This document shows positions 3,345 through 60,869 of a stretch of DNA of 64,000 nt, piece by piece. Each line of letters opens with the position of its first letter. The first letter of the stretch is position 1. The stretch comes from Rhodospirillales bacterium (lineage in GTDB: Bacteria; Pseudomonadota; Alphaproteobacteria; Acetobacterales; Acetobacteraceae), in NCBI GenBank assembly GCA_043744375.1, contig JAYTUU010000052.1, positions 1,450 through 65,449 of the forward strand. Direction: 5' to 3'. A program made the position numbers and the translations under genes. A model generated the notes under the pieces. The model had not been told where the DNA came from, ran no database searches, and saw only the letters and a program-made list of their open reading frames with translations.

Positions 3345-3434
3345 TCCAGTGCCCCTCGGTTCCTCGTGCGAAGATAACGTCGGGTGAATGAGTGGCGTCA
3401 ACAACTGATGCAGCGATGAGGGGGAAGCAATCAA

Positions 3435-9644: not shown

Positions 9645-9755
9645 GAGAAATCGTGCAAACTCTAGAGGTTTCACGAAATTAAGTTTACCCCCACCGCGCG
9701 GTTGCAGTAGGGTCGTTTAAATTACTTCTAAATACGCAAACCGTCTCATGGTTTG

Positions 9756-10889
9756 ATGCGCGAGGAAATCGCCGTGCTGGAGTTTCTGCCCGCCTTCCCA
9801 CGCGCGATCGTGGCCTTTGTTATTGTTCTCGGCATTCTCGTGTTCGTGCACGAATATGGCCACTACATCGCGGCGCGTTGGCGCGGCGTGCATGTGGAGA
9901 CGTTCTCCATCGGCTTCGGCCGCGCGCTGTTCACTTGGCGCGACCGGCGTGGCACCGTCTGGAAGGTCGGCTGGGTGCCGCTCGGCGGCTATGTGAAGCT
10001 GCACGGGCAGGAGCGGCCAGAGGATGTCGCCGCGGAGGTGCGCGCGCGCTGGATCCCCGGGCGCACCTTCCACGAGAAATCCGTGGCCTCGCGGGCCATC
10101 GTCGTGGCGGCGGGGCCGGCGGCCAATTTCGCCCTCGCGGCCGTGCTCTATTTTATCCTGTACGCCAGCGTTGGCCGGCCGATTGCGCTGCCTGTCATTG
10201 GCGAAGTGCTGGCCGATTCGGTGGCGCAGAAGGCCGGGTTGCAGGCCGGCGACCGCATCACCGGCATCGATGACGCCGCCGTTACCCGGTTTGGCGATAT
10301 CCAGCGCATCATCTTCGCCAGCCCCGGAAAACCGCTCGTGCTGCATGTCCTGCGCGCCGACTCGCCGCGCGACATTCCGATCACGCCCGAGGAACAGGTC
10401 GACGCCAAAGGCAATCGCTCTGGCAAGCTTGGCATTCGCGGCGGTGGCACGACCTTCGAACCGGTCTCGTTGCCCGAAGCACTTTGGGCCGGCGTGGACC
10501 AGACCTGGGATATCACCGTGCAGACGCTCGATGGCGTCTGGGCAATGATCAGTCAGCGTAAATCCGGCGAGGATCTCGGCGGGCCGCTGCGCATCGCGCA
10601 GATGTCGGGGCAGGTGGCTACGCTCGGATTCGCCAGCCTCATCTCCTTCATCGCGCTGCTCTCGGTCAATCTCGGGCTGATCAATCTGTTCCCCATCCCC
10701 GTGCTCGATGGCGGCCACCTGATGTTCTTCCTGGCCGAGGCCATTCGCGGCAAGCCATTGCCCGTGCGCGCGCAGGAATACGGCTACCGCGCTGGATTCG
10801 CTCTGCTGATCGGGCTGTTCGTCTTCGCCACCTGGAACGATCTGACGCATATCGGACTGTTCCGCTGGGTCGCGTCCCTGGTCGGATAG
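9756..10889 (+). CDS. rseP: RIP zinc metalloprotease RseP (M50 family)
   Basis: HEYGHY zinc motif, central PDZ-like segment, NLFPIPVLDGGH. GTG 9774 is an alternative start. Confidence 0.9.
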   Translation: MREEIAVLEFLPAFPRAIVAFVIVLGILVFVHEYGHYIAARWRGVHVETFSIGFGRALFTWRDRRGTVWKVGWVPLGGYVKLHGQERPEDVAAEVRARWIPGRTFHEKSVASRAIVVAAGPAANFALAAVLYFILYASVGRPIALPVIGEVLADSVAQKAGLQAGDRITGIDDAAVTRFGDIQRIIFASPGKPLVLHVLRADSPRDIPITPEEQVDAKGNRSGKLGIRGGGTTFEPVSLPEALWAGVDQTWDITVQTLDGVWAMISQRKSGEDLGGPLRIAQMSGQVATLGFASLISFIALLSVNLGLINLFPIPVLDGGHLMFFLAEAIRGKPLPVRAQEYGYRAGFALLIGLFVFATWNDLTHIGLFRWVASLVG

Positions 10890-11047
10890 GGCCTGCCGCC
10901 GACGCGCTCCCGCAAAGTCATGTCAGGGGGGTTGCGCTGCGCGGTTTCGGCGGGTAGCGCCATGCCGATGGTGCGGCTATTCTCCGCGCCCCGCATAGGC
11001 CAGTCGTCTCGAACCTTGGGACGGCGCTGCAACCAGGGGTATCGCCT

Positions 11048-13399: not shown

Positions 13400-13404
13400 G
13401 CGAA

Positions 13405-14250
13405 ATGAAGCGTCGCGTGTTTGCCATCGCCGTTGCTGCCCTCGCCGGGCTGACGGTTTCATTTGCCTGGCTTGTCCCGCCGGCAGCGGCGCAGGGCCAG
13501 GATTTTTTCGTGCCGAACCAACGCCCCGCGCCGCAGGCCGGCCAGCGCCCGCCGGCTGCCGCCCCAGGCCCCGCGCGCGCCGCGCCGCGTCCGGCACCGA
13601 CCAACCAGCCAGCACCGCAGGAGGAAGCCCAGGCACCGATCCAGGCGCCGATGCCGCCGGTTCCGGACTTGCCGGCGCTCCCCCGTGGTGCCGCCGCGCC
13701 GGCGGCCATCATCGGCTTGATCGGCGTGCCCGAGGTGATGCGCGCCTCCGCCGCCGCTCAGTTGGTTGACCGCGTCATCGGCGAACGCCGCGAGAAATTG
13801 AACGAGGATGCCCAGAAGGAGCAGCAGGCCTGGCGCGACCTCCAGCAGGCGCTCGCCAACCAGCGCACGACCCTTTCGCCGGAGCAGATACGCACCAAGG
13901 AGCGTGAACTGCAGGACCGCATCACCAGCGCGCAGCAGCGCTTCCAGAACCGCGGCCGGATCATTCAGGAAGCGGCGCAGTACGGCCTCAACCAGATCCA
14001 GGCCTCGCTGATCGCGGTGATCCGTCAGGTATCGGAAAGCCGTGGCATGAACCTGATCCTGCACCGCCAGCAGGTCGCGTTGAACGTCAACGAGTTCGAT
14101 ATCACCGAGCAAGTTGCCGAACAGCTCAACAAGCTGCTGCCGACGGTGATCATTCCGCCTGATGGCGTGTCGCCCAATCCCCCGGCGGCGGCCGGTACCC
14201 CTGCCGCTAGTACCCCCGCCGCAACGCCGCCCGCACCGCCGAAGCGCTGA
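13405..14250 (+). CDS. OmpH/Skp-family periplasmic chaperone with a Pro/Ala-rich insert
   Basis: [30 protein letters not shown] signal peptide, coiled-coil region ([25 protein letters not shown]...), position between bamA and lpxD. The track ORF (from 12943) overlaps bamA. Confidence 0.8.
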
Positions 14251-14254
14251 TCCG

Positions 14255-15304
14255 ATGGCGGGCGATCCGCGCTTCTTTGCCCGCCCCGCGCCGATCTCGA
14301 TCGCGGCCGTATGCGCGGCGGCCGGCGGAAGCGCCGATGGGGATGGCTTTCTGCTCACCGGCATAGCGCCGCTGCAGACGGCGACGGCGACCGAGCTGAG
14401 CTTTCTCGACAATCGCCGCTATCTGCCTGCGCTCAAGGAGTGCCGCGCCGGTGCTGTGATCGTGCATCCCGACATGGCCGCGCATGTGCCGGAGGGCACG
14501 CGCGCCATTGTCACCCCTCAGCCCTATCTTGGCTGGGCGCGTGCTGCCGCCCTTTTCTTTCCGGCCCCGCCGACCACCCCAGGCGTACATAGCACCGCGG
14601 TCGTGGACGAAACCGCACGGATCGACCCATCGGCCGAGATTGGCCCGTTCGCGGTAGTTGCCGCCGGCGCTGAGGTCGGCGCGCGCTGCCGTGTCGGACC
14701 GGGTGCCGTGATCGGTGCCGGCGTCGTGCTCGGTGCGGATTGCCGGATCGGTGCCCATGCCAGCATCAGCCACGCCTTGCTTGGCGCACGGGTCTACATC
14801 TATCCCGGCGCGCGGATCGGCCAGGAGGGCTTCGGTTTTGCCTCCGGCCCCACCGGCCTTGTCACCGTTCCCCAGCTTGGCCGCGTGCTGATCGGCGACG
14901 ATGTCGAGATCGGCGCCAATTCCTGTGTCGACCGTGGCAGCGCCCAGGATACCGTGATCGGCGCCGGCTCGCGGCTCGATAACCTCGTGCAGATCGGCCA
15001 CAACGTGCAGCTTGGCCGCTGCTGCATCGTCGTCGCCCATGCCGGCATTTCCGGTTCCGCGGTGCTGGAGGATTTCGTCGTCATCGCCGGGCAGGCGGGT
15101 GTCGCGGGCCATCTGCGCATCGGCAAGGGCGCCAAGATCGGTGCGCAAGCGGGTGTGATATCGGACGTTCCAGCCGGCCAGGATTGGGTCGGCAGCCCGG
15201 CCCAGCCGGCGCGGGAGATGTTTCGGCAGGTGGCGATACTCAAGCGCCTCGCCGTCCGCACCCCGGCGAAAGATCAGAACGCCACGCGAAAGGAGACGAC
15301 ATGA
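14255..15304 (+). CDS. lpxD: UDP-3-O-acylglucosamine N-acyltransferase
   Basis: [19 protein letters not shown]..., long left-handed beta-helix hexapeptide repeats, conserved position. Confidence 0.93.
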
Positions 15305-15810
15305 GCGATCAGCCCCCCGCGGCTTCCGAGCCGCGGCGTATCGACCGCATCGACATCAACCGCATCATGCTCGGCCTGCCGCACCGGTTCCCCTTTCTGC
15401 TGATCGATCGGGTCGTCGATTTCGTGCATGACCAGTCGGCCACCGGCATCAAGAACGTTTCGATCAACGAGCCGTTCTTCCAGGGCCACTTCCCGGGCAA
15501 CTTCGTCATGCCTGGTGTGCTGATCGTCGAGGCGATGTGCCAGACGGCGGGCGTGGTGGTGTGCGAAACCCTCGGCCCGGAGGACGGCTACGGCATCAGC
15601 GTCTATTTCATGTCCATCGAAGGGGCGAAATTCCGCCGCCCCGTGGTGCCCGGCGACCAGGTGCACCTGCACGTCACGAAAGACCGCCGGCGGGGCGGGG
15701 TCTGGCGGTTCAATGCGGAAGCGAAGGTGGATGGCGTGAAAGTGGCAGAGGCGACGTTCACCGCGATGGTGATCCCGAAAGACAAGACCGCGGCGGCCCC
15801 CACATCGTGA
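15301..15810 (+). CDS. fabZ: 3-hydroxyacyl-ACP dehydratase FabZ
   Basis: [13 protein letters not shown] and [21 protein letters not shown] motifs; ATG 15301 overlaps the lpxD stop (ATGA). Confidence 0.96.
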
Positions 15811-16619
15811 CGGGCATTCATCCAACCACGCTCATCGCGCCCGGCGCGCGGATTGCCGACGGTGTCGAGATCGGGCCGTGGTGCACGGTCGGCGCGGACG
15901 TGGAGCTTGCCGCCGGCGTGCGGCTGATCAGCCACGTCGTCGTCGAGGGCCACACGAGAATTGCCGCCGGCGCGGTGCTCTACCCGTTCAGCACCGTCGG
16001 CATGGCGCCGCAGGATCTCAAGTATAAGAATGAACCGACGCTCGTGGAGATCGGCGAACGTACGCTGATCCGCGAGCACGTCACCATCCATCGCGGCACC
16101 CCGAACGGCGCCGGCATTACCCGCGTTGGCGCCGACTGCATGCTGATGAACGTCGTCCATGTCGCGCATGACTGTACGATTGGCAACGGCGTCATCATCG
16201 CCAACAACGTGGTGATGGGCGGCCATGTCCAGATCGGCGACCATGCGGTGATCGGCGGCAGTTCGGCGATCCACCAGTTTGTCCGCATCGGCCGCGCGGC
16301 GATGATCGGTGGCGTTTCGGGCGTGGAGGCCGATGTCGTGCCGTTCGGCGTGGTGCTCGGCAACCGCGCGCGCCTGGCCGGGCTCAACGTCATCGGCATG
16401 CGCCGCCGCGGCTTCGACCGGGCGCAGATCCACGGAGTCCGCGCCGCGTTCCGGGAGATGTTCTGGGGCAGCGGCGTGTTCGCCGAACGGGTCGCCGTCG
16501 TACGCGCCCGCATGGCCGGCGATCCGCTGATCGACGAGATGCTCGCCTTCATGGCCGTGCCGAGTAAGCGCGGCCTGGTGCGCGCGGGGTCACCGAGCCA
16601 CGACGACAGCGACAGCTAG
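15807..16619 (+). CDS. lpxA: Acyl-ACP--UDP-N-acetylglucosamine O-acyltransferase
   Basis: IHPTTLIAPGARIADGVEIGPWCTVG hexapeptide repeats; GTG 15807 overlaps the fabZ stop (GTGA). Confidence 0.93.
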   Translation: MTGIHPTTLIAPGARIADGVEIGPWCTVGADVELAAGVRLISHVVVEGHTRIAAGAVLYPFSTVGMAPQDLKYKNEPTLVEIGERTLIREHVTIHRGTPNGAGITRVGADCMLMNVVHVAHDCTIGNGVIIANNVVMGGHVQIGDHAVIGGSSAIHQFVRIGRAAMIGGVSGVEADVVPFGVVLGNRARLAGLNVIGMRRRGFDRAQIHGVRAAFREMFWGSGVFAERVAVVRARMAGDPLIDEMLAFMAVPSKRGLVRAGSPSHDDSDS

Positions 16620-16622
16620 ACG

Positions 16623-17471
16623 ATGACCGATCGCCCGGCGCTCGGTATTCTCGCGGGGTCCGGCCCACTGCCCGGGCGCGTCGCCTCGGCGGCCCGGGCG
16701 GCGGGGCGGGCTGTATTCATCGTCGGCCTCGAAGGCTTCGCGGAGAAGGCCGTGCTCGCTCCCTACGCGCATGATTTCGCCCGCATGGGGGCGGCCGGGC
16801 GCATCCTCGACCTGTTGCGCGCGAATAACTGCAAGGATCTCGTGCTGATTGGCCCGGTCCGCCGGCCGTCGATTTTCGACGCGCGGCCGGACGGGATGGG
16901 CGCGAAACTCCTGGCACGCGTCGGCCGCGCGGCCTTCGGTGGCGACGATTCGCTGCTGGCCGCCGTGATCAAGGTGCTGGGCGAGGAGGGTTTTTCTGTC
17001 ATTGGCGCCCATGAAATCCTCACCGAGGCGCAGGCCCCGCGCGGCCTGCTGACCGCCGCCGCCCCGGACGCGCAGGCGATGAGCGATATCGCGCGCGGCG
17101 TCGCGGTCTGCCGCGCCCTCGGGGCCGTCGATGTCGGGCAGGGCTGCGTCATCCAGTCCGGCCTCGTGCTCGCCGTCGAGGCGATCGAGGGCACTGACGC
17201 CATGCTCGCACGCGCCAGCCTGCACCGCCGCGGCGGCGCCGGCGGCGTGCTGGTGAAAATGTCCAAACCCGGCCAGGAACGCCGTGCCGACCTGCCGACC
17301 ATCGGGGCCGTGACGGTCGCGAACGCCGTTGCCGCCGGCCTGCGCGGCATCGCCTTCGAAGCCGGCGGCGCTTTGTTCGCCGAGCGCGACGCCGCCATCG
17401 CCGCCGCCGACGCGGCCGGCCTATTCCTCATCGGCATTGATGCTCAATCGCAGCAGGAGACGGCCGCATGA
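16623..17471 (+). CDS. lpxI: UDP-2,3-diacylglucosamine diphosphatase LpxI (DUF1009 family)
   Basis: GILAGSGPLPGRVA, GQGCVIQSGLVLAVEAIEGTDAML, KPGQERRADLPTIG; the usual alphaproteobacterial position after lpxA. Confidence 0.8.
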   Translation: MTDRPALGILAGSGPLPGRVASAARAAGRAVFIVGLEGFAEKAVLAPYAHDFARMGAAGRILDLLRANNCKDLVLIGPVRRPSIFDARPDGMGAKLLARVGRAAFGGDDSLLAAVIKVLGEEGFSVIGAHEILTEAQAPRGLLTAAAPDAQAMSDIARGVAVCRALGAVDVGQGCVIQSGLVLAVEAIEGTDAMLARASLHRRGGAGGVLVKMSKPGQERRADLPTIGAVTVANAVAAGLRGIAFEAGGALFAERDAAIAAADAAGLFLIGIDAQSQQETAA

Positions 17472-18322
17472 AAATCGGCGCCGCGATGTTCTTCACCGAC
17501 TATTCGATGACCCCGATGGCCCTCGGCAAGGCGCTCGAAGAGCGAGGGTTCGACTCGCTGTGGGCGCCCGAGCACTCCCACATCCCGGCATCCCGCGCCT
17601 CGGCCTTCCCCTCCGGCGGCGAATTGCCGAAGAAATACTACGATGCCATGGACCCCTTCGTGACGTTGACGGCCGCCGCCTGCGCCACCACCACCCTGCT
17701 GGTCGGCACCGGCATCTGCCTGGTGCCGCAGCGCGACCCGATCCAGACTGCCAAGCTCGTCGCCTCCCTCGATCAGGTCAGCAATGGTCGCTTCCTGTTC
17801 GGCGTCGGCAATGGCTGGAACGCCGACGAGATGGCCAATCACGGCACCGATTTCACCACGCGCCACAAGCTCGCCCGCGAGCGCATCGAGGCGATGCAGG
17901 CGATCTGGACGCAGTCCAGGGCCGAATATCACGGCGAGATGGTCAATTTCGATCCGATCATGGCGTGGCCCAAACCGGTTCAGAAGCCACATCCGCCGAT
18001 CATCGTTGGCGGCGCCTTCCCCTACGGCCCGCGCCGCGCCATCCGCTACGGCAATGGCTGGATGCCGCACCGGACACGCCCGAACTACACCGATGTCGCG
18101 GAGTTCGTTCCGCAATTCCGCGACATGGTCGTCCAGGCCGGGCGCGATCCGGCGGACGTGCCGGTGACCATCTGGGGCGCGCGCGAAGATTTTTCCCTGC
18201 TCGAACGCGACCGCGCGCTGGGTGTGGTGCGGCTCGTCGTCAGCCTCGACTCGGCGCGGGACGATGCGATCCTGCCGGAACTCGACCGCTGGGCCGCATT
18301 GATCCGCCGCCTCGGGGATTGA
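17468..18322 (+). CDS. Luciferase-like monooxygenase (LLM) family, F420/flavin-dependent oxidoreductase type
   Basis: MKIGAAMFFTDYSMTPMALGKALEERGFDSLWAPEHSHIP..., GRFLFGVGNGWNADEM, PHPPIIVGG; ATG overlaps the lpxI stop (ATGA). Confidence 0.8.
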   Translation: MKIGAAMFFTDYSMTPMALGKALEERGFDSLWAPEHSHIPASRASAFPSGGELPKKYYDAMDPFVTLTAAACATTTLLVGTGICLVPQRDPIQTAKLVASLDQVSNGRFLFGVGNGWNADEMANHGTDFTTRHKLARERIEAMQAIWTQSRAEYHGEMVNFDPIMAWPKPVQKPHPPIIVGGAFPYGPRRAIRYGNGWMPHRTRPNYTDVAEFVPQFRDMVVQAGRDPADVPVTIWGAREDFSLLERDRALGVVRLVVSLDSARDDAILPELDRWAALIRRLGD

Positions 18323-18424
18323 TCACGCAGCGCGGACGTTGCGCGGCGCGCCGGCAACCCCGCGGGTGAACTGGCGGGCAATGTTGGCGGCTCCGAGGAT
18401 GCCGTAGCGGAGCGGGGAGGGCAT
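18323..18424 (-). pseudogene. 5' remnant of a Gfo/Idh/MocA oxidoreductase gene (truncated duplicate of 56542..57570)
   Basis: My translation MPSPLRYGILGAANIARQFTRGVAGAPRNVRAA* compares with MTSPLRYGILGAANIARQFTRGVAGSPLATV... for the intact gene. It ends 1 nt after the LLM gene stop. Confidence 0.75.
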
Positions 18425-19392
18425 GGTCGGCTCCTGGATTTTCGGGAGAATGCGGCAGTCCGGAGGGATCGACCAGGGGATATTTATTACGAATTAGTAA
18501 CAAAATGCTCGTGCATCTGCGGCTGGTGCGGCATTCCCGGGAGGCGGCGCCGGGGGTGGCCAGGGCGGTGGGCGCAGGAGAGCGGGCGGCGTGGCCGGCC
18601 GGGGCGCGTTGGGCGGGTTGGTGAATGGATGCCGGGCATGCGGCGCGAGGTCGGCGGGGGTGTGCGCCGGCGGCTGGTCCGGCGACTGGTCCGGCTGTGC
18701 CATGCGTGCGGTGCGCGGGGCGCTCGGCGGGTTGGGTTGGCGCGCGGGCCGGTTGGCGGGCGGCGTGCGGGGTTGGCTGTCCTGGCACGGGCGGTTGGGC
18801 AAGGCGGGCGGCAGGCCGGCGGTCTGGAAGAAAGCCAGCAGGTGGGCGAGGCCATCGCGCAGATGGCCGATTCGCCGCCAAACTGGCCCGGCCCAGGCGC
18901 CGAACAGACGCTGGCGCAGGGCGAGCAACGGCGTGGCGGGGGCCAGCATTGCATCCAGGCACAGGATGATCGCCTCCAGCACACGACACAGAGCCGCCGC
19001 GTCGGAGGCGCCAGGCCGGGGTTGGGGGGGAGCAATGTTCATATTGTGTTCCTAGCAAACCGCTACGCCGGACGCAAGGAAATTTTTCCTCTAAGCGCTA
19101 TTTTTTCCGTGGTGCGATGCGGGAGAAGCGGACGCCGAGACTGATACTGGCCGAACCGCCGGCGATGGGGGCGGTGAAGGATCGCGACGCCGGGTGCGGG
19201 CACGCTGCCGCCAGTGAGCGCGGCGCCCCCGCGCGCGCCGGGCTGGGGGAGCGGCATGGGCAGGCAGTTGCGGGGGGCGACGAGTGCGACGGCGATGCAG
19301 CAGGCGCTTTGCACCGCCTGGGCATGCGCGGGCGCCTTCGAGCGGGATGGGCAGAGAGTGGACAGCCGTATCGACGAGACAGCTTCGAATGC
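18340..19392. repeat. R1: ~1.05-kb direct repeat, paralogous to R2 at 57486..58567
   Basis: By-eye alignment shows long identical runs in the same orientation, e.g. GGCGGCGTGCGGGGTTGGCTGTCCTGGCACGGGCGGTTGGGCAAGGCGGGCGGC and CATATTGTGTTCCTAGCAAACCG. Left boundary is approximate (+/-15 nt). Confidence 0.9.
18494..19042 (-). CDS. Hypothetical protein: ~80-aa helical N-terminal domain plus a long proline-rich tail (paralogue at 58194)
   Basis: MNIAPPQPRPGASDAAALCRVLEAIILCLDAMLAPATPLLALRQRLFGAWAGPVWRRIGHLRDGLAHLLAFFQ...; the frame is kept in both R copies despite indels. I recognise no family. Confidence 0.45.
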   Translation of the reverse strand: MNIAPPQPRPGASDAAALCRVLEAIILCLDAMLAPATPLLALRQRLFGAWAGPVWRRIGHLRDGLAHLLAFFQTAGLPPALPNRPCQDSQPRTPPANRPARQPNPPSAPRTARMAQPDQSPDQPPAHTPADLAPHARHPFTNPPNAPRPATPPALLRPPPWPPPAPPPGNAAPAADARAFCY

Positions 19393-19720
19393 TTGAGAGT
19401 CCGTCCGGAAACTCCTTCAACGATTGCATAATCTCCGGGTCATGAGCCGGATCGACGCAAGCTTGAGGAATGACAGCGCATTTCGTGTCCGGTTCTCGAA
19501 ATCCTTGGCCAAACGCCGGCACCGGCCGAGCCACGCGAACGTCCGTTCGACCACCCAACGGCGTGGCAAAACGACGAAGCCTTGAGCCGCGTCTGAGCGC
19601 TTGATGATCTCGACCTGCATTTGCGTCAGGAGCTGCGCCACACCTTGCTCGAAGATCGGCCCCTGGTAGCCACCATCGGCAAATACCTTGCGCAGAAACG
19701 GGTAGAGGCCGAACAGCGCA
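19393..19720 (-). mobile_element. IS5-family transposase gene, 3' fragment only (truncated)
   Basis: C-terminal sequence ...ALFGLYPFLRKVFADGGYQGPIFEQGVAQLLTQMQVEIIKRSDAAQGFVVLPRRWVVERTFAWLGRCRRLAKDFENRTRNALSFLKLASIRLMTRRL (stop at 19417). The upstream part of the track ORF is junk. Confidence 0.8.
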
Positions 19721-19743
19721 GTATTATGTAGCAACCGCCACCA
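19721..19743. repeat. 23-bp inverted repeat, left copy (partner 21755..21777)
   Basis: GTATTATGTAGCAACCGCCACCA; its exact reverse complement occurs at 21755-21777. Confidence 0.9.
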
Positions 19744-19787
19744 CGGAGCGGAAGCGGAGTGCCCGGCCTTCGGGGTAGCCTCCGGGC

Positions 19788-20222
19788 ATGAAGATCGCCA
19801 TGAACGCCCTGCGGCGCAAGCACGCCATGCTCCTCGGCCAGATCGAAGCCGCCGAGCGTGCGATTGAACCGCTCCGCGCCAAGTTCGTGCTGGCAGACGC
19901 CACCATGCTCCTGTTCGAGCCCGACGCCGAGCCAATCCTGATCCCAGGCGTGCGGCCAATCAAGCGCTGCCAATGGTTCAAGCATGGCGAACAGAAGCGG
20001 CTTTGTGTCCGCGCCCTGCGCGAGGCTGACGCGCCCCGGACTACCACCCAGGTTGCCCGCTACGTCATGGCGGCGAAGAAGCTGCCCGAGGATGGGTTGC
20101 CGAGCCTGGGTGTCATCCGCCGGCAGGTTCGCATCGTCATGTGCCGCATGGAGAAACTGCGGGCCATTCGGCGGATCGTGGAGGCGCCGGATACGTGGTG
20201 GGAGTTGGCGGGTGGAGATTAG
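19788..20222 (+). CDS. Hypothetical 144-aa protein (N-terminal coiled-coil-like segment, basic C-terminal half)
   Basis: GC3-rich codon usage: MKIAMNALRRKHAMLLGQIEAAERAIEPLRAKFVLADATMLLFEPDAEP...RRQVRIVMCRMEKLRAIRRIVE. Followed by hairpin GGCTACGGCGACGTAGCC. Confidence 0.6.
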   Translation: MKIAMNALRRKHAMLLGQIEAAERAIEPLRAKFVLADATMLLFEPDAEPILIPGVRPIKRCQWFKHGEQKRLCVRALREADAPRTTTQVARYVMAAKKLPEDGLPSLGVIRRQVRIVMCRMEKLRAIRRIVEAPDTWWELAGGD

Positions 20223-20547
20223 TAGCCTCGGCTACGGCGACGTAGCCGTAGTCCGAGATGGAGACACAAGCTCAGCAGTTGCCGATCACGAAAATGTCAT
20301 ATATAAAATTGACCGATTCAAAACAACGGGTTGTCACGATTCCCCATGCCTTAGCCCCAGATTTTGATTCCCTACTTGCGATTCGAACTTGCAGATTCGT
20401 ACAAGGCAAGTGGAACCGGACGGTTTTGGATGGGAGCCTTGACACTTTCGCGGGACGCTGTAATCGACACCGTCCCCAAATATAGGGGTGAATACCAAGT
20501 TTGCACCCCGATCGCTGGTTCGCCAGCCACAGGGAGAGGATAGAGTT

Positions 20548-20784
20548 ATGTCGCACCAAAAAACCAGCGTCCGTGGTCGTGAAGACCCGGGAGGGAAAAG
20601 CGCGGTCGATTCGGCTTTCAATTGGGAGCATCTAATCAAGCAGGTCGTTGCTCGCTTTGCTCGCGGCAACATCTCCGCTCAAAATGCACGCATCCTTCTC
20701 CCGGCCGAGCAGGCGAGCGAGAACGCTTTGGCTAGGCGCATTGCGCGGAAATGGAAAGCACGCGGCGAGCGGAAGGCGGCTTAA
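20548..20784 (+). CDS. Hypothetical small protein in the AT-rich segment
   Basis: ATG 20548 preceded by GGGAGAGGA; MSHQKTSVRGREDPGGKSAVDSAFNWEHLIKQVVARFARGNISAQNARILLPAEQ... The track ORF starts at 20488. May be the front half of a frameshifted gene with 20751..21482. Confidence 0.35.
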   Translation: MSHQKTSVRGREDPGGKSAVDSAFNWEHLIKQVVARFARGNISAQNARILLPAEQASENALARRIARKWKARGERKAA

Positions 20785-21482
20785 TACTACGAGTGGCGAT
20801 TAGAACGGCGTGCGCTGGGGACGAATCTGTGATAGATGACAGTGAAGTGGAGGCGGCCTTTCGCCTGCTCATCCAAGAGTGGAACGTTGCGGAGCGCCGC
20901 ATCAAGAAGGCTGAGCATGTTCGCGCCGGTGAAGTTGTGGCGTCCGCGATTTTTGAGCTTCGCTATGCGGGTCGGAAGGTTATGGATGCCGTCCAAATTC
21001 TTCTCTCGGGTGATTGGAAAACGAATGAAGAGCGCCGCCGGCTCGTTCTGACATATTTGGCCGACGCCACTGAAGATTGCGTCAAGGCTAAGCATGACGC
21101 GATAGACTCTATGCTGGATTTCAGCACAAGGTGGTTTTACGAGACCGAAAGAATATTGAGTCTGGGTAGCTTAGTGAAATTTTTCCCCGATTACGTGAAT
21201 ATCACATCGGAAATCAGCGAAATACAAGAAAATATTGCGGCGTCTAGAGAGAATAGAATTGATTCACGCGATGGAATTTATGACGATATAGAATCGACAA
21301 AATTAGAAAGTATTCTAAGTCTTTTTCAGAACATGCGAAACTCCCATAAAAGAGTAACAGCGGCGGTTCGTAAAGAGCGTTGTGTTGAGAGATTTCTGAT
21401 CTGGTGCGCTATAATTGGTACAGTTTTGGGGGTTGTGGGAATTGCGGCGGCCTATTGGATGTGGAAGCATCCTATTTCATAG
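20751..21482 (+). CDS. Hypothetical helical protein with one C-terminal transmembrane helix (AT-rich, foreign codon usage)
   Basis: ...EVVASAIFELRYAGRKVMDAVQILL...ADATEDCVKAKHDAIDSMLDF...; C-terminal FLIWCAIIGTVLGVVGIAAAYWMW. Start uncertain (ATG 20751 or GTG 20793). Confidence 0.55.
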   Translation: MESTRRAEGGLILRVAIRTACAGDESVIDDSEVEAAFRLLIQEWNVAERRIKKAEHVRAGEVVASAIFELRYAGRKVMDAVQILLSGDWKTNEERRRLVLTYLADATEDCVKAKHDAIDSMLDFSTRWFYETERILSLGSLVKFFPDYVNITSEISEIQENIAASRENRIDSRDGIYDDIESTKLESILSLFQNMRNSHKRVTAAVRKERCVERFLIWCAIIGTVLGVVGIAAAYWMWKHPIS

Positions 21483-21524
21483 CTAATATTCATTACGACG
21501 TTAAGCCGCCTTCTGCGCCCGTTG

Positions 21525-21754
21525 TCAGTAGCCTGACCGATCCACGCTCGGCCGGCTGGCCATCGCCAAGGCGACGACGTTGCGAACCTGCGTCCCGTTG
21601 GGCACGCGGCGGTTGTCCTCGCGCCACGAGGCTTCCTGCGCATAGCGGATCAAGTAGCTGCCCGCGATGTGGTGATGATGCCCGATCTCGGCCCGGCGCA
21701 TCCGGCTAAAGAATTCTTCGGCGCCGTTGGTGTAGACGCCCGTCGATTTCCCTA
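21525..21754 (-). mobile_element. IS1595-family-type transposase gene, C-terminal fragment (truncated)
   Basis: My minus-strand translation: ...GKSTGVYTNGAEEFFSRMRRAEIGHHHHIAGSYLIRYAQEASWREDNRRVPNGTQVRNVVALAMASRPSVDRSGY*. Below the track's ORF size cutoff. Family call is from memory of similar transposase C-termini. Confidence 0.65.
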
Positions 21755-21777
21755 TGGTGGCGGTTGCTACATAATAC
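21755..21777. repeat. 23-bp inverted repeat, right copy (partner 19721..19743)
   Basis: TGGTGGCGGTTGCTACATAATAC, the exact reverse complement of 19721-19743. Confidence 0.9.
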
Positions 21778-21779
21778 CG

Positions 21780-21892
21780 GAACAGGGCAGATTTCCTGAC
21801 CTAATGGGATAGAGCTACCTCAGGGCGGCTGCCCTCGGGACTCCGCAGCCAAACGGATAGACGTTTTTTGGTTCTTTTTTTCAAAAAAGAAC
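21780..21892. repeat. A1: ~110-bp double-palindrome repeat (copies A2 59645..59783, A3 60654..60757)
   Basis: GAACAGGGCAGATTTCCTGACCTAATG...ACCTCAGGGCGGCTGCCCTCGGGACTCCGCAGCCAAAC...TTTTTTGGTTCTTTTTTTCAAAAAAGAAC. Confidence 0.85.
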
Positions 21893-22024
21893 AGCGCTTC
21901 TTTTTGTCGAGGGCCAACGCGCATGGCGCCGGGCACCCTGGAAGCCGCATCCGGAGTGCTGTAGGAAGTGGTGGATGTTCCATTGTCGTTTGATGATTAT
22001 GTATCAGCATAATCCGATTTTATC

Positions 22025-27490: not shown

Positions 27491-27558
27491 GCTGGCATCC
27501 TACAGCAGATTTCGCGCGCAAGGATGAACGTCGCCGGGAATTTTGGCGGGAGGATGGG

Positions 27559-27669
27559 GCGCGCAAGGCGGGAAGGGGGAGCGCTTTCGGCGCGCAAGGC
27601 AGGAAGGGGGAGCGCTTTCGGCGCGCAAGGTAGGAAGGGGGAGCGCTTTCGGCGCGCAAGAGGCGCGCC
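27559..27669. repeat. 31-bp tandem repeat, 3 full units plus a partial one
   Basis: GCGCGCAAGG(C/T)(G/A)GGAAGGGGGAGCGCTTTCG at 27559, 27590 and 27621, then GCGCGCAAGAGGCGCGCC. Lies between the pgi start and the upstream lipoprotein gene stop. Confidence 0.9.
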
Positions 27670-36935: not shown

Positions 36936-36997
36936 CGGGGAGGCTCCGCTTCGGACATCATCGGCAGGAAGAATGGCGGATCAAGGTAGGAAAGCAA

Positions 36998-37248
36998 GGC
37001 TCCGCCGGCAAAGGGCCGGGGGCCCTTTGAACCCGTGACTTCTGCGGCTGGATCAACGGCCTTCCGATGATATCTGCGTTCTTGCTTGCGCCGCAGGCCA
37101 TCGCCACCTTGGAACGCCTGTTCGGTCGCGAAGAATTCCGGGCTTCGCCAGCCCAACGGCAAGATCGCGCCGCTTCAACCGAAGGCCGCCGATCCAGCCG
37201 CGAGCAGTAATGGGTTCAAAGGGCCCCCGGCCCTTTGCCGCCGGAGGC
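36998..37248. repeat. MITE-like nested-palindrome element, copy 2 (termini homologous to 3435..3593)
   Basis: Left GGCTCCGCCGGCAAAGGGCCGGGGGCCCTTTGAACCCGTGACTTCTGCGGCTGGATCAACGGCCTTC pairs with right GAAGGCCGCCGATCCAGCCGCGAGCAGTAATGGGTTCAAAGGGCCCCCGGCCCTTTGCCGCCGGAGGC. Confidence 0.8.
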
Positions 37249-37252
37249 ACGC

Positions 37253-37579
37253 TTACGTCTTCGTTCCGCCTGTGAGCCGGGAGAAGGTCTGGCGGTCCTT
37301 GTTCTCCTGCATGAGCATGCGGAAGCCCGGGATATCGCCGAGGCTGAGGCCGCTGGGCAGGCCGGTTTCTTCGTCGGGGGTGATTTTGCCGTAGGTCTCG
37401 CCGGAGATTTTCTCCCATTTACCAGCGGGCTTCTTGGCTTCGATGTGCACGACGGTGGCCTTGAACACCATCCGCACGATCGCCTCTTTCGGTGCCGAGG
37501 GCTTGGTGAGGCACGGGCATCCGGCGAGGATTTGCCAGCCGTTTGACAGTGCCCAGGCGGTCAGTTCGATCTTGTCCAT
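37253..37579 (-). CDS. Hypothetical 108-aa protein downstream of prfB
   Basis: MDKIELTAWALSNGWQILAGCPCLTKPSAPKEAIVRMVFKATVVHIEAKKPAGKWEKISGE...; starts 8 nt after the prfB stop. No family recognised. Confidence 0.5.
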   Translation of the reverse strand: MDKIELTAWALSNGWQILAGCPCLTKPSAPKEAIVRMVFKATVVHIEAKKPAGKWEKISGETYGKITPDEETGLPSGLSLGDIPGFRMLMQENKDRQTFSRLTGGTKT

Positions 37580-56090: not shown

Positions 56091-56519
56091 TCAGCGTTCG
56101 ATCGCCGAGAGGGTTACGCTGAGCGTGCTCTGCCCCGGCCCGACCAGGGTGCCGGTGAGGCTCAGCACGCGCTCCGGCGCGCGCATCGTGCCGGCGAGAC
56201 CGAGCGATTCCGCAGGATTGACCATGGTCAGCGGCAGAAGCGGGTCGCGTCCCAGCGGCGTAAGCCCCGCCGATCCCGGGCCAAGGCGCAGGCCGCCCGC
56301 CGGTTGCGCCGGACGGGTGCCGCCGGAGACATAGAGTTGCCCATAGCGATTGGCGGGGTCGAGCAGCGCGATGGCGCCCGGCTTGTCCGCCAGTGCCGTT
56401 GAACCCAAAGCCGGCGCACGCGGCGTCACCGCGATGCAGCAATCCGACCGCATTGCCTGGGCATGCGCGCCGGACATGGCCGTCAGCAGCGCCACGGAGC
56501 AGAGGATCAAGTATCGCAT
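56091..56519 (-). CDS. Hypothetical secreted protein (142 aa)
   Basis: MRYLILCSVALLTAMSGAHAQA signal peptide. ATG 56519, 22 nt after the oxidoreductase stop. The rest of the 248-aa track ORF is junk. Confidence 0.5.
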   Translation of the reverse strand: MRYLILCSVALLTAMSGAHAQAMRSDCCIAVTPRAPALGSTALADKPGAIALLDPANRYGQLYVSGGTRPAQPAGGLRLGPGSAGLTPLGRDPLLPLTMVNPAESLGLAGTMRAPERVLSLTGTLVGPGQSTLSVTLSAIER

Positions 56520-56541
56520 ACCAAGTGTCCCCTCGCGGTTT

Positions 56542-57570
56542 TCAGGCGGCGATATCGACCCATCGGCCGCTGCGCGCGCTGGCGGCGATGGCTTCGAGGG
56601 CGAGCACGATATCGATCGACTCCGCCTCGCTGGCGCCGTTCCAGCCGGCGCCGGTGCGCACGAGGGTGGCGAACGAGTCCGCCTCGGCGCGAAAACCGTC
56701 GCCGCCGGGCAGGTCCTCCGTCTCGAACGGCAGCGGGCCGGCGATGCCGCGCTTGACGCGGAGCGGCAGGGTGCCGGTGAGCGCATGGTTGCTGTAGCCG
56801 GTTTCCACCACGCCCTTGTCGCCGATGATGACGGCATGGCGGTGCCCGGCGGTGGACAGGCTGCACGTGAGTTGGCCGATCGCGCCGGAGGGGAATTCGA
56901 TGGTCGCCGCGATGGTCTGATCGACGCCGGTGGTGGTGGTGCGCTGCGTCGCGATCAGGCGTGTCGGGCGTTCGCCGGTGGCGATGCGCAGCAGGCTCAT
57001 CGCATAGGTGCCGGCATCGAGCAGCGCGCCGCCGCCGCGGGCGGGCACCAGGCGGATGTTCGCCGGGTCGCCGGTCGGCACGCCGTCAGCCGTCGCGATG
57101 GCGAATCCGAACGCGGCGGTGGCGATCTGGACGCGGCCGAGCGTGCCGTCGGCGAGCAGTTCGCGCAGCCGCAGCGTCTGCGGTTGGGACATGTAGGGGT
57201 AGGCTTCGCGCAGATACACGCCATGAGCGCGGGCGGCGGCATACATCGCATGCGCCTCGGTGCCGGTCATGCAGAGCGGCTTCTCGCACAGCACATGCTT
57301 GCCGGCCGCCATCGCCTTGATCGCCCACTCCGCGTGCATGTCGTTCGGCAGGGGGATGTAGATCGCCTCGATCTCGGGGTCGGCGAGCAGCGCCTCGTAG
57401 GTGGGGTGGGCGCGGGGAATGCCGAGCTCCTTGGCGAACGCGGCCGCCTTCTCCGCGCCACGGCTGCCGACGGCGGTGACGGTGGCGAGCGGCGAGCCGG
57501 CAACCCCGCGGGTGAACTGGCGGGCAATGTTGGCGGCACCGAGGATGCCGTAGCGGAGCGGGGAGGTCAT
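56542..57570 (-). CDS. Gfo/Idh/MocA-family NAD(P)-dependent oxidoreductase
   Basis: MTSPLRYGILGAANIARQF Rossmann N-terminus, IYIPLPNDMHAEWAIKAMAAGKHVLCEKP. ATG 57570 preceded by AGGAGA. Confidence 0.88.
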   Translation of the reverse strand: MTSPLRYGILGAANIARQFTRGVAGSPLATVTAVGSRGAEKAAAFAKELGIPRAHPTYEALLADPEIEAIYIPLPNDMHAEWAIKAMAAGKHVLCEKPLCMTGTEAHAMYAAARAHGVYLREAYPYMSQPQTLRLRELLADGTLGRVQIATAAFGFAIATADGVPTGDPANIRLVPARGGGALLDAGTYAMSLLRIATGERPTRLIATQRTTTTGVDQTIAATIEFPSGAIGQLTCSLSTAGHRHAVIIGDKGVVETGYSNHALTGTLPLRVKRGIAGPLPFETEDLPGGDGFRAEADSFATLVRTGAGWNGASEAESIDIVLALEAIAASARSGRWVDIAA

Positions 57571-58567
57571 GGTCGTCTCCTGGATTTCCGGGAGAATGCG
57601 GCAGTCCGGAGGGATCGGCCAGGGGGGGTGCCTAATTATTCCGAAATCGCAACAAATAGGGCATGCGTTTGCTGCCGGTGCGGTAGGCCCGGGAGGCGGC
57701 GCGGGGGGTGGCCAGGGTGGCGGGCGCATCAGAGCGGGGGGCGCGGGCGGAGGGGGAGCGTTGGGTGGGGTGGTGCATGCAGGCCGGGCAGGCGGCGCGC
57801 TGATGGTGTGGGTTTGCGGCGGCGGCTGGTCCGGCGGCGCGGGGCGTTGGGTGCGCGGGGCGCCCGGCGGGGTGGGGTGGCGCGCGGGCCGGTTGGCGGG
57901 CGGCGTGCGGGGTTGGCTGTCCTGGCACGGGCGGTTGGGCAAGGCGGGCGGCGGGCCGGCGGCCTGGAAGAACGCCAGCAGGTGGGCGAGGCCATCGCGC
58001 AGATGGCCGATTGGCGCCCAAACTGGCCGCCAAACTGGCTCGGCCCAGGCGCCGAACAGACGCTGGCGCAGGGTGCGCAGCGGCGTGGCGGGGGCCAGCA
58101 TTGCATCCAGGCACCGGATGATCGCCTCCAGCACGCGACACAAAGCCACCGCGTCAGGGGCGCCAGGCCGGGGTTGGGGGGGAGCAATGTTCATATTGTG
58201 TTCCTAGCAAACCGTTAGGCCGGATGCAAGGAAATTTTTCCTCTAAAGGCTCTTTTTCAGTGGCGCGATGCGGGAGAGGCGGTGCCGGGCGAGGCTCAGG
58301 CGTGCGGACGCCGACGCTGATAGTGGCCGAACCGCCGGCGATGGGGGCGGTGAAGGATCGGCACGCCGAGTGCGGGCACGCTGCCGCCAGTGAGCGCGGC
58401 GACCCTGACGCGCGGGGCTAGGGGAGCGGCATGGGCCGGCGGTTGCGGGGGGCGACGAGGGCGACGGCGATGCAGCAGGCGCTTTGCACCGCCTGGGCAT
58501 GCGCGGACACCTTCGAGCGGGATGGGCAGAGAGTGGACAGCCGTATCGATGAGACAGCTCCGAATGC
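57486..58567. repeat. R2: ~1.08-kb direct repeat, paralogous to R1 at 18340..19392
   Basis: Same orientation as R1. Relative to R1 it carries a 12-nt CCAAACTGGC-type duplication and a ~25-nt insertion (GGTGCCGGGCGAGGCTCAGGCGTGC) in the leader part. Confidence 0.9.
57571..58194 (-). CDS. Hypothetical proline-rich protein, paralogue of 18494..19042; no in-frame stop before the oxidoreductase ATG
   Basis: MNIAPPQPRPGAPDAVALCRVLEAIIRCLDAMLAPATPLRTLRQRLFGAWAEPVWRPVWAPIGHLRDGLAHLLAFFQ.... The track ORF 56542..58194 reads straight into the Gfo/Idh/MocA gene. True 3' end unknown. Confidence 0.4.
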
Positions 58568-58625
58568 ACCTCAGAGACCCACCCTATGGAAGCTCCGGTG
58601 GTGGACGTGGATAGAATTCTCCATT

Positions 58626-59216
58626 CTACCTTTTGCTTGAGACGCCGTGGCGTACATGCATATCAAATTCACGAAGTTCGATGAGGGCACCTCCAACTCC
58701 CTTTCCTGCCGCTTCTTCTAGCAATGGCTTGGCGATGGTCAGGTTCGCGGGAAATTCAGTCCGAATGCCGTACTTATGCATAAACCCTTTAAAAAACTTG
58801 GCCGTCGCATGGTCGTGAGTCTTTATCAAGAAATCCAACATGAAGTCGCTGTATTCTGGCTGGTATATTACAGGTCCCAGACCCTTTACTGCGCCACCGA
58901 TATAAGAAAATATGCTGGCATGCATTATATAATCCGGAGATGTTCGTTCTAGGTCGAGTTTATTTACAATAAATAGTCGCGGACCTACCGAGCCGAAGTC
59001 ATCGTTCAATTGCCGATAAAGTCCGCCGATATCGTCACGAGTCATGCGAGATTCAATTTCCACATGGTAGCGCTCGTGCCTCATGAAGATGCGCGATAGG
59101 ACGCCCTGCACCCTTCTTAAAAGATGGTCGTGATTGGGTCCATCTTTGCCCTCAGTCGCAAGAAGTTTTGCCTTTAGATATACAAACGTTTCTTCCAAAT
59201 CCTTATCGGCGATCAT
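58626..59216 (-). CDS. Hypothetical protein in an AT-rich segment (about 196 aa from ATG 59216)
   Basis: MIADKDLEETFVYLKAKLLATEGKDGPNHDHLLRRVQGVLSRIFMRHERYHVEIE...GGAVKGLGPVIYQPEYSDFMLDFLIKTHDH...; foreign codon usage. The upstream part of the 288-aa track ORF is antisense to the IS3 fragment. Start uncertain. Confidence 0.55.
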   Translation of the reverse strand: MIADKDLEETFVYLKAKLLATEGKDGPNHDHLLRRVQGVLSRIFMRHERYHVEIESRMTRDDIGGLYRQLNDDFGSVGPRLFIVNKLDLERTSPDYIMHASIFSYIGGAVKGLGPVIYQPEYSDFMLDFLIKTHDHATAKFFKGFMHKYGIRTEFPANLTIAKPLLEEAAGKGVGGALIELREFDMHVRHGVSSKR

Positions 59217-59361
59217 TTCGGGACTCAATACGTGCCTATTCAACAACCTCACTCGCGCTACTCCCAGCGTTACAACAAAGGTGGCTCTGGCAATCTGAAC
59301 AGTTGGATAAGTGGCATGGGCGAGCCTGATCGAGCAAGCTTGCTTATGAACGGGAGCGACG

Positions 59362-59580
59362 ATGAGCAGACGACCTCGCCGGAACCAGACGCCGGGCTTC
59401 AAGGCGAAATTGGCCTTGGCGGCCATCAAAGGTGACAAGACGCTGGCCGATCTGGCCAGCAGTTTGACGTGCACCCCAACCAGATCACGCAATGGAAGGC
59501 GCAGTTGCAGGAAGGCGCTGCCGACACCGCCGGTGGACCTGAAATCGCTGCATGGGAAGATCGGAGAGCTGGCGCTGCGC
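59362..59580 (+). mobile_element. IS3-family transposase orfA, degraded fragment (frameshift plus internal deletion, no orfB)
   Basis: MSRRPRRNQTPGFKAKLALAAIKGDKTLADLAS, then a shift of frame restores QFDVHPNQITQWKAQLQEGAAD, then PVDLKSLHGKIGELAL. Confidence 0.75.
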
Positions 59581-59644
59581 TCGTACGGTGAGTGGGCTTC
59601 CGCTGCGACCTGGAATTTGCCGGATGCAAAAATCCTGCAAAGGA

Positions 59645-59783
59645 GAACAGGGCAGATTTCCTGACCTAATGTGATGGGCTACCTCAGGGTAGCTGCCCCC
59701 CGGGACTCCGCAGCCAAACCGATGGAAGTTTTTTGGTTCTTTTTTCAAAAAAGAACTGCTGTCTCAGGGCAATCGCGTGAAGC
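59645..59783. repeat. A2: double-palindrome repeat (copies A1 21780..21892, A3 60654..60757)
   Basis: GAACAGGGCAGATTTCCTGACCTAATG...ACCTCAGGGTAGCTGCCCCCCGGGACTCCGCAGCCAAACCGATGGAAGTTTTTTGGTTCTTTTTTCAAAAAAGAACTGCTGTCTCAGGGCAATCGCGTGAAGC. Confidence 0.85.
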
Positions 59784-59925
59784 ATTGCATTGCAGGTCTC
59801 GACACTCATCCATTCCCTAATGGGCGTCGTTGCAAGCCTTGCGAAGCACTCCCGCATCACCGTCCTTCATTTTCGATGGCCCGGCGAGATGGAAAGGGCT
59901 GGTCAAAATGCTCCTCCAATGCTAG

Positions 59926-59937
59926 GTTACATGTAAC
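59926..59937. promoter_or_regulatory. Perfect 12-bp palindrome upstream of the antitoxin gene (candidate TA operator)
   Basis: GTTACATGTAAC, 14-20 nt upstream of the mazE-type start codons. Confidence 0.4.
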
Positions 59938-59951
59938 TATTCCTTGGAGAT

Positions 59952-60197
59952 ATGGTTATGGCTACGCCATCAAACCCCAAGCCGTCGCGCGTGAAGGTGC
60001 GTGAGCATCGCGCGCGGTTGCGCGGCCAGGGGCTGCGTCCGATCCAGATATGGGTACCGGATGTCCGCGCGCCGGCCTTCCGGTCAGAGGCGCATCGCCA
60101 ATCGCTGGCCGTGGCCACCAGTCCTCATGCTGCTGAAGATCAGGCGTTCATCGACGCCGTGTCCGCTATCGATTTCGAAGAGGGCGGCGCTGAATGA
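59952..60197 (+). CDS. MazE-family antitoxin (DUF3018-like)
   Basis: PSRVKVREHRARLRGQGLRPIQIWVPDVRAPAFRSEAHRQSLAVA. Overlaps the toxin start (ATGA). ATG 59958 is an alternative start (GGAGA upstream). Confidence 0.8.
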   Translation: MVMATPSNPKPSRVKVREHRARLRGQGLRPIQIWVPDVRAPAFRSEAHRQSLAVATSPHAAEDQAFIDAVSAIDFEEGGAE

Positions 60198-60547
60198 GGC
60201 GGGGTGACATCTGGACCGTATCGGGTGGCGAGGGCTATGCAGGCAAACCGCGCCCCGCCGTCATTGTGCAGGACGATAGCTTTGACGGTACCGACTCCAT
60301 CACCATCTGCGCCTTCACCACGGATGAGACCGACGCGCCGCTGTTTCGGCTTGTCGTGGAACCGAACGAGCGGAATGGTTTGCGCGCCGGATGCCGCATG
60401 ATGGTGGACAAGATCACCACCGTCCCCAAGTCGAAGACCGGCGCGCGCGTCGGCAGGCTCGATGACGAGGATATCCTGCGCCTCAATCAGGCCGTGCTGG
60501 TGTTCCTTGGACTGGCGGTTTCGCCAAGGGTGAGCCGGGAGGGGTGA
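60194..60547 (+). CDS. PemK/MazF-family type II toxin (endoribonuclease)
   Basis: MRRGDIWTVSGGEGYAGKPRPAVIVQDDSF...ITICAFTTDETDAPLFRLVVEP...MMVDKITTVPKSK. Confidence 0.88.
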   Translation: MRRGDIWTVSGGEGYAGKPRPAVIVQDDSFDGTDSITICAFTTDETDAPLFRLVVEPNERNGLRAGCRMMVDKITTVPKSKTGARVGRLDDEDILRLNQAVLVFLGLAVSPRVSREG

Positions 60548-60653
60548 CAAAGAAGGCCGCCGAACGTACCCCGGCGTAGGTTGGGGCCGTTCTGTTTATC
60601 AGCGGTTCGCGCGATCCGGCCGGTATGTCCCGACCCCGCGCCGAGTGCGGTCG

Positions 60654-60757
60654 AACCTCAGGGCAGCTGCCTCCGGGACTCAGCGGCCAAACCGATAGAA
60701 GTTTTTTGGTTCTTTTTTTCAAAAAAGAACCGCTGTCTCAGGGCAATCGGGTGAAGC
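60654..60757. repeat. A3: double-palindrome repeat lacking the first ~30 nt of A1/A2
   Basis: ACCTCAGGGCAGCTGCCTCCGGGACTCAGCGGCCAAACCGATAGAAGTTTTTTGGTTCTTTTTTTCAAAAAAGAACCGCTGTCTCAGGGCAATCGGGTGAAGC. Confidence 0.85.
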
Positions 60758-60840
60758 GCGGCAATCCCGCATCGCCGTGAGACCGTTTGGGTGGCTCTGG
60801 ATTGCTTCGCAAGGGCTCGCAATGACGGTGGAGAACCGCC

Positions 60841-60869
60841 TTGCGCGGGGGGCGGGGGGTGGTTATAAG
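60841..60869 (+). promoter_or_regulatory. Candidate sigma70-type promoter for rpmI-rplT
   Basis: TTGCGC (60841-60846), 17-nt spacer, TATAAG (60864-60869), ~90 nt upstream of the rpmI ATG. Pattern match only. Confidence 0.35.

Follow-up and report, generated by a model that had tools for sequence, protein, structure and literature searches.

Two islands with shared outer repeats in an Acetobacteraceae contig probably trace to one old segmental duplication

Introduction

How do two loci of one genome come to carry the same outer repeats, in the same order and orientation, around different genes? The question is raised by a 64,000-nucleotide (nt) stretch from a Rhodospirillales bacterium of the Acetobacteraceae (GenBank assembly GCA_043744375.1, contig JAYTUU010000052.1, positions 1,450 to 65,449), hereafter the window; coordinates refer to it unless a relative is named. 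Two accessory islands in the window each carry a long repeat, R, on the left and at least one copy of a short repeat, A, on the right, with fragments of insertion sequences (IS) and AT-rich orphan open reading frames (ORFs) between them. The original prediction, made from the letters alone, had offered three explanations: an undescribed family of mobile elements that swap their cargo and are bounded by R and A, a segmental duplication at an insertion hotspot, or a likeness produced by IS-driven scrambling. Our comparison with relatives points to a single old segmental duplication followed by IS-driven replacement of the interior as the probable origin, with R and A not being the ends of a mobile element.

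Results

Repeat R includes the start of a neighboring host gene

A repeat search of the window and a MAFFT pairwise alignment paired R1 (18343-19392) with R2 (57489-58567). The searches and alignments bore out the predicted repeats, with R and A in the same order and orientation at both islands, and a comparison of the interiors found nothing else that the islands share. The R copies and the gene from which their left end derives are as follows.

57486-58567, strand unstated: R2, consisting of the oxidoreductase 5' end (57486-57570), R-left (57571-58275) and R-right (58276-58567).
18343-19392, strand unstated: R1, the secondary R copy as delimited by the alignment, including oxidoreductase codons 1-25 at 18343-18425.
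56542-57570, minus strand: native Gfo/Idh/MocA oxidoreductase gene (Pfam PF01408, PF22725 and PF02894), syntenic in the relatives L003/L004 and L025.

R1 and R2 were 89-94% identical overall, with alignment blocks of 79-96% and several indels, in-frame and other; identity was 0.893 across the left 778 aligned nt and 93-94% across the right 290 nt. At its left end, R2 consists of the oxidoreductase upstream region and first 25 codons, and R1 holds a copy of them. As the original prediction had stated and the alignment verified, the left end of R1 (18343-18425) is the reverse complement of codons 1-25, 'MPSPLRYGILGAANIARQFTRGVAG'; its outer end consists of 85 nt of host gene together with the upstream (promoter) region of the oxidoreductase.

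We used as relatives metagenome contigs reached through protein clusters at 90% identity. Two of them, L003/L004, matched window positions 58275-56547, that is, the oxidoreductase and the left ~700 nt of R2, at 88%, and went on into a Phd/YefM toxin-antitoxin pair in place of R-right, on a 4.6-kb contig without A. R-left is therefore common to this ~90% relative, from which R-right is absent. R2 adjoins the intact, syntenic oxidoreductase; R1 carries its 25 codons inside an island that is absent from another relative, L001. Because R1 holds the oxidoreductase upstream region and codons 1-25, it must have been copied from the R2 locus. Identity was 0.893 between R1 and R2, and 0.826 between R1 and L003 as well as between R2 and L003. 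Being closer to each other than either is to L003, R1 and R2 are sister copies, made by a duplication after the split from the ~90% relative, and their separation lies at roughly 60% of the depth of that split. R was confined to this lineage: besides the window it occurred only in L003/L004, and none was found in the JGI metagenomes or in the loci bearing A.

R contains an orphan ORF of 182 amino acids (aa), which in R2 starts at 58194 on the minus strand. It matched only itself among 5.8 billion proteins, had no Pfam, NCBIfam or PADLOC match and no relatives in the JGI metagenome scan; its pN/pS was 0.37-0.58, resting on 55 codons only. In R2 no stop lies between the orphan ORF and the oxidoreductase, and the two read through in one frame as an ORF of 550 aa (56542-58194, minus strand); a stop separates them in R1 and in L003. 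This in-frame fusion is likely an annotation trap.

Two further origins were considered for parts of R. A ~425-nt stretch between dapF and the oxidoreductase (56122-56546), missing in L003, encodes a ~140-aa ORF with a signal-peptide-like start; 42 nt of it (56428-56469) resemble R-right at 58464-58505, and L025 carries three other small ORFs at the same position. That R-right and this stretch are copies of one element was rejected, the match being only 42-57 nt long and corresponding to a signal-peptide-like 'AHAQA..CCIAV' motif. The R2 tail (58555-58580) as a relic of an IS5 end or an A start was not significant (P ~0.3).

Relatives preserve an empty site for each island

Island 1 lies in the spacer between lpxI and rluB. 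The relatives L001/L002 (~90% nt identity) were collinear with window positions 7580-17441 and then again from 21957, with homology resuming by eye at ~21922, and in both of them lpxI runs directly into rluB. Island 1 replaces 11 nt, the lpxI stop among them. It takes in one gene to the left of R1:

17468-18322, plus strand: LLM-class F420-type oxidoreductase gene (NCBIfam TIGR03619), absent between lpxI and rluB in L001.

The closest homologues of the LLM gene with readable context (82% aa identity) lie in unrelated contexts. A native position of this gene at lpxI, with R1 as the true island edge, was weakly rejected, given these homologues elsewhere and its absence from L001. At 17442-17471 the last codons of lpxI have been replaced, and the gene now ends in island-derived sequence; its stop overlaps the start of the LLM gene (ATGA).

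Island 2 lies between the oxidoreductase and rpmI, which are divergent. The relatives L025/L026 (~80% nt identity) keep the ftsY-miaB-dapF-oxidoreductase synteny, and their homology to the window ends at 57562 and resumes at 60864, in the native rpmI upstream region; only 118 bp separate their oxidoreductase start from the promoter of rpmI. This empty site identifies 57563-60863 as an accretion in a divergent intergenic spacer. Together with L003/L004, the content of the oxidoreductase-rpmI spacer differs in three lineages.

From the comparison with relatives, we corrected the island borders to 17442-~21922, with the LLM gene included, and 57563-60863, the latter ending ~105 nt past the last A unit. 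Empty sites were thus available for both islands; no relative with an intermediate state was found.

Repeat A belongs to a dispersed hairpin family that occurs without R

The window contains three direct copies of a ~80-nt A core, at 21817-21895 (A1), 59681-59760 (A2) and 60655-60733 (A3), with pairwise identities of ~90-92% as counted from the alignment. Every core contains a perfect AT palindrome, GGTTCTTTTTT(T)CAAAAAAGAAC. With their extensions, the units are the following.

21780-21922, plus strand: A1 unit, with left extension (21780-21816), core (21817-21895) and a diverged right extension to ~21922.
59645-59783, plus strand: A2 unit, with left extension (59645-59680), core (59681-59760) and right extension (59761-59783).
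60655-60757, plus strand: A3 unit, core and right extension; its left side abuts the truncation point of the mazEF cassette described below.

A1 and A2 have a common left extension, from 21780 and 59645, which begins GAACAGGGCAGATTTCCTGACCTAATG (GAACAGGGCAG) and is 93% identical over 46 nt. A2 and A3 have a common right extension, to 59783 and 60757, which ends ...GGGCAATCGnGTGAAGC (GTGAAGC); the right extension of A1 is a diverged version of it. The right edge is the same in all three units, and the right flanks all differ. In the window copies the core lies between the two halves of an internal direct repeat of 9 nt, CTCAGGGCA, which is a candidate target duplication.

We located the A family by blastn of A1 against plasmids and by a pattern scan of one genome per species. 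Two Pseudoroseomonas cervicalis plasmids carried the right arm of A, as did six Rhodospirillales/Acetobacteraceae metagenome-assembled genomes. Elsewhere, A makes up the right half of an element ~150 nt long, which has terminal inverted repeats (GGAAGCAAG...CTTGCTTCC), an AT palindrome in either arm and a variable GC hairpin in the center. These elements occupy intergenic gaps between gene ends, and long hairpins are the predicted fold of full copies (z = -10 and -6). With an nhmmer profile made from full copies we detected 26 members of the family at 18 loci outside the window, in Acetobacteraceae and other Rhodospirillales; as many as four stood within 8 kb, and single arms occur as well. 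No R was found near any of these 26 copies. The window units match only profile positions ~76-153, so A1-A3 are half-copies (right arm and center), that is, singlets. The arms are near-identical across distant Acetobacteraceae/Rhodospirillales genomes (L005-L013 and L016-L024; for example, L010 6524-6675).

Judged by its sequence, the A family is a hairpin repeat common in Acetobacteraceae and other Rhodospirillales that resembles MITEs (miniature transposable elements with inverted repeats) and REPINs, the paired form of repetitive extragenic palindromes (REPs); possibly it is a REPIN system. Full copies have the terminal inverted repeats expected of MITEs; no target duplication recurred consistently, and no parent IS came to light. 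GTAG and CGTC are the tags of two large REP superfamilies (PMC3733652), and neither is present in the A arms, which start GGAAGCAAG.... At gathering score, Rfam covariance models had no match in the window, and a full A copy gave only sub-threshold matches to generic hairpins (miRNA precursor). Searches of the literature by sequence strings and repeat keywords found no description of the family, which is apparently undescribed and would be a modest addition to the REPIN/MITE kind.

The extensions of the window units are more restricted than the core. A 20-mer scan with the left extension and the A-family loci showed that the 37-nt left extension of A1/A2 occurs nowhere else, and the right extension of A2/A3 is likewise absent from the family elsewhere. 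Their absence argues for segmental copying of A rather than precise transposition. We also compared the left extension, by local alignments scored against shuffles, with the IS5 end, intact IS5 relatives and the IS5 fragment of island 1. The idea that it is the other IS5 terminal repeat, from an ancestor of the form R-IS5-A, was rejected, the alignments being no better than shuffles (P 0.06-0.95).

If R and A bounded a mobile or integrative family so far undescribed, mobilized in trans with swappable cargo, their constant order and orientation at two loci that are both insertions relative to relatives would follow directly. The repeats themselves do not behave as such ends: R1 includes 85 nt of a host gene and its upstream region, R-left stands in a relative with different neighbors and no A on its 4.6-kb contig, and R is seen only in this lineage while A is common without it. 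Moreover, R and A are linked by no recombinase and by no terminal repeats, inverted or direct, no target duplication was seen at the empty-site junctions of either island, and island 1 also holds the LLM gene outside R. As far as the data reach, R and A co-occur nowhere else, and the two loci present a duplication with unrelated insertions, the outcome that the original prediction had named as speaking against a mobile family. We regard the mobile-family explanation as highly improbable.

The interiors are assembled from unrelated fragments

Several predicted properties of the interiors held up: the cargo is AT-rich in both islands (GC 0.40-0.55 vs ~0.70 in the background), the IS5, IS1595 and IS3 pieces are all fragments, with no integrase or intact transposase in the islands, and the 23-nt inverted repeats and the mazEF genes are present. 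The orphan ORFs had no Pfam, NCBIfam or PADLOC matches, and exact-protein look-ups of several window proteins returned none. Between R1 and A1, island 1 contains three features.

19393-19720, minus strand: C-terminal fragment of an IS5-family transposase (Pfam PF01609, NCBIfam NF033580, partial).
19721-21777, strand unstated: block bounded by perfect 23-nt inverted repeats (19721-19743 and 21755-21777).
21525-21750, minus strand: C-terminal fragment of an IS1595 transposase, within this block.

By blastn, homology to IS5 elements extends over 19386-19718, and comparison of the ends with intact relatives placed the IS5 terminal inverted repeat directly against R1. The inverted-repeat-bounded block contains a 144-aa ORF, AT-rich ORFs of 98 and 243 aa and the IS1595 fragment; perhaps it is what remains of an IS1595-type element that had taken up passenger genes. 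Its outer flanks show an imperfect 11/13 direct repeat, CCGAACAGCGCAG / CGGAACAGGGCAG, a possible target duplication, which is marginal (P ~0.06) and offset by 2 nt. Pieces 100% identical to the block were present in three Logan read-set assemblies.

Island 2 contains the following features besides R2, A2 and A3.

58626-59492, minus strand: AT-rich orphan ORF (GC ~0.46-0.50) with no family match.
59347-59577, plus strand: IS3-family orfA fragment, matched by blastn to annotated IS3 transposases on plasmids over query positions 8-238 only.
59825-59852, plus strand: CGTC-type REP-like hairpin, forming an inverted pair with the one at 60799-60827.
59861-60642, plus strand: mazEF cassette, with mazE at 59952-60197 and mazF at 60194-60547.
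60799-60827, minus strand: second CGTC-type REP-like hairpin, just upstream of the rpmI promoter.

The mazEF genes were confirmed as a type II toxin-antitoxin system (PF11455, 3e-25; PF02452, 8e-19) and overlap by 4 nt. The cassette was 96.7-97% identical to metagenome contigs L031-L033, in which an 82-aa ORF and a serine recombinase come after mazF, and ~90% identical to L034-L036, which carry the same module without A between a glutathione S-transferase gene and a tRNA gene. Homology breaks off at 60642, leaving 12 nt up to the core of A3. The recombinase linked to mazEF elsewhere had no tblastn match in the window, where mazEF is a fragment of a serine-recombinase-bearing element from elsewhere. 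The mazEF module regions lie at L031 591-1301 and L034 6400-8200; the module is decayed in L034, beside the tRNA gene. The 82-aa ORF downstream of mazF is conserved, with 250 homologues at E<=0.001.

The two CGTC hairpins, CGTCrTTGCrAGCC(C)TTGCGAAGCA, bracket the mazEF cassette and A3; a 2013 survey had found CGTC REPs to be missing from Acetobacteraceae (PMC3733652). With its repeats and fragments, the spacer of island 2 is a cluster of small repeats plus pieces of mobile elements.

These interiors bear on two other explanations. In the first, A would be a portable recombination site, and A-ended blocks would be moved by homologous A x A recombination or by a trans-acting enzyme like the REP-associated tyrosine transposases (RAYTs). 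Island 1 does end at about the right edge of A1, the A2/A3 direct repeats flank the mazEF cassette, and the three units share a right edge despite different right flanks. However, A is missing from the left edge of either island, from the empty sites in L001 and L025 and from the mazEF copies elsewhere, and no recombinase was found in the window. Furthermore, A2 and A3 differ by ~8% and mazEF is 97% identical to its foreign copies, so the direct repeats were not made by the mazEF insertion. We consider a recombination site of this kind quite unlikely.

In the second, R and A would have become associated independently: R1 would be a duplicated fragment with which A1 did not travel, and A units would either gather in accessory or foreign DNA or themselves be preferred spots for insertion and recombination, so that an A beyond each R would be a coincidence favored by clustering. 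REP clusters are known IS targets, which favors this explanation. It also draws on the abundance of the A family in related genomes without R and on island 2 itself, which has two A copies and two other REP-like hairpins, so that repeats do cluster there. The unique 37-nt left extension of A1/A2 nevertheless implies one flanked ancestor rather than independent precise insertions, and R and A have the same order and orientation and have diverged to a similar degree. By a rough estimate, if three A copies were scattered at random over 64 kb, both R copies would have one within 2.5 kb downstream in well under 1% of cases. On balance, an independent association appears unlikely, if still worth keeping in mind.

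Other repeats in the window

Two further repeats lie outside the islands. Another GC-rich palindromic repeat (…GGCTCCGCCGGCAAAGGGCCGGGGGCCCTTTG…) forms inverted doublets at two core-genome sites, 3422-3581 and 36985-37254, and at 27558-27660 a 31-nt unit is repeated in tandem at least three times, at 95-100% identity.

Discussion

We have compared two islands that share R and A with their relatives, and we favor, with somewhat better than even confidence, one old segmental duplication plus IS-driven replacement of the interior, with no role for R and A as mobile-element ends. The duplication at an insertion hotspot, listed as one option of the original prediction, is supported by the empty sites, by R-left being native beside the oxidoreductase, by the sisterhood of R1 and R2 and by the variable spacer. 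The data also show that the A family is spread without R and that mazEF is of foreign origin. Scrambling by ISs, listed as another option, accounts for the differing interiors and is compatible with the duplication.

The history would run as follows. The oxidoreductase-rpmI spacer, lying between divergent genes, varies by lineage and gathers the debris of mobile elements. The ancestor of this strain would already have had R in the spacer and, further right, an A unit, itself a half-copy (right arm and center) of the ~150-nt intergenic hairpin repeat. One old duplication, non-homologous or IS-assisted, would then have copied a block from oxidoreductase codon 25 through R to the end of the A unit, and the block would have landed in the lpxI-rluB spacer, now beside the LLM oxidoreductase gene. 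Later, the interior of at least one copy would have been replaced through IS5, IS1595 and IS3 insertions and deletions and AT-rich foreign DNA. Rearrangement in only one copy suffices, and hence the sharp right edge of R and the sharp edge of the left extension need no special site. The degrees of divergence of A (~90-92% identity) and R (89-94%) are similar; a joint move of A1 and R1 is our inference, as is the manner in which the block was copied. The R copies are old (8-11% diverged), and for this reason the mechanism is no longer readable from the junctions.

Several points weigh against this history. The right edge of island 1 lies at about the end of A1 and A3 lies close to the right edge of island 2, which accident does not predict. 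All three A copies of the 64 kb are inside the islands, and 44 kb of sequence from close relatives contained no A. The joint move of A1 and R1 is left to inference, no relative in an intermediate state having been found; the census of R and A in this strain covers the 64-kb window; and a further event is required to account for the LLM gene on the left of R1. The island edges at A, the confinement of A to the islands and the A2/A3 pair around mazEF leave a small chance that A units are recombination sites. That they are portable recombination or attachment sites at the right ends, with the whole R...A block moved by a trans-acting enzyme, is very unlikely; if true, the block would be a cargo-swapping, non-autonomous element.

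For the segmental duplication that we favor, the lesson is one of caution: matching "ends" around different cargo can mimic a mobile family where ordinary genome scrambling after an old duplication probably produced them. The oxidoreductase-rpmI spacer is a clean example, of modest value, of a spacer filled differently in three related lineages. The A family, an AT-rich palindromic family of ~150 nt, could merit a census and a search for its transposase.

Among known systems, REPs and REPINs (Bertels and Rainey 2011, PMC3116915; PMC3337134) resemble the A family in being short, intergenic and multi-copy and in lying between gene ends. Full A copies, like REPINs, consist of two inverted arms around a variable spacer that form a long hairpin, and singlets occur too. 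In contrast to REPs, the A arms are AT-rich palindromes in a GC-rich genome, without the GTAG or CGTC tag (PMC3733652), and the window copies carry extra flanks and look copied as segments, not transposed. MITEs such as Correia, ERIC and RUP share with the A family a length of ~150 nt, terminal inverted repeats, a lack of coding capacity, dispersal and hairpin formation, whereas the A family has no identified parent IS or clear target-site duplication.

The islands themselves compare with two further kinds of system. The window mazEF cassette derives from a genomic island or integrative element of the serine-recombinase type, but the window keeps only a 0.8-kb mazEF fragment of it, lacking both recombinase and att-like ends, and elsewhere that element does not include R or A. 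The closest likeness is to segmental duplication and IS-mediated rearrangement at intergenic hotspots, whose traits all have their counterparts here: a paralogous block with a truncated neighbor gene, relatives that show empty sites, breakpoints marked by IS fragments, and filler made up of toxin-antitoxin cassettes and AT-rich orphans; in no essential respect do the two islands differ from this pattern.

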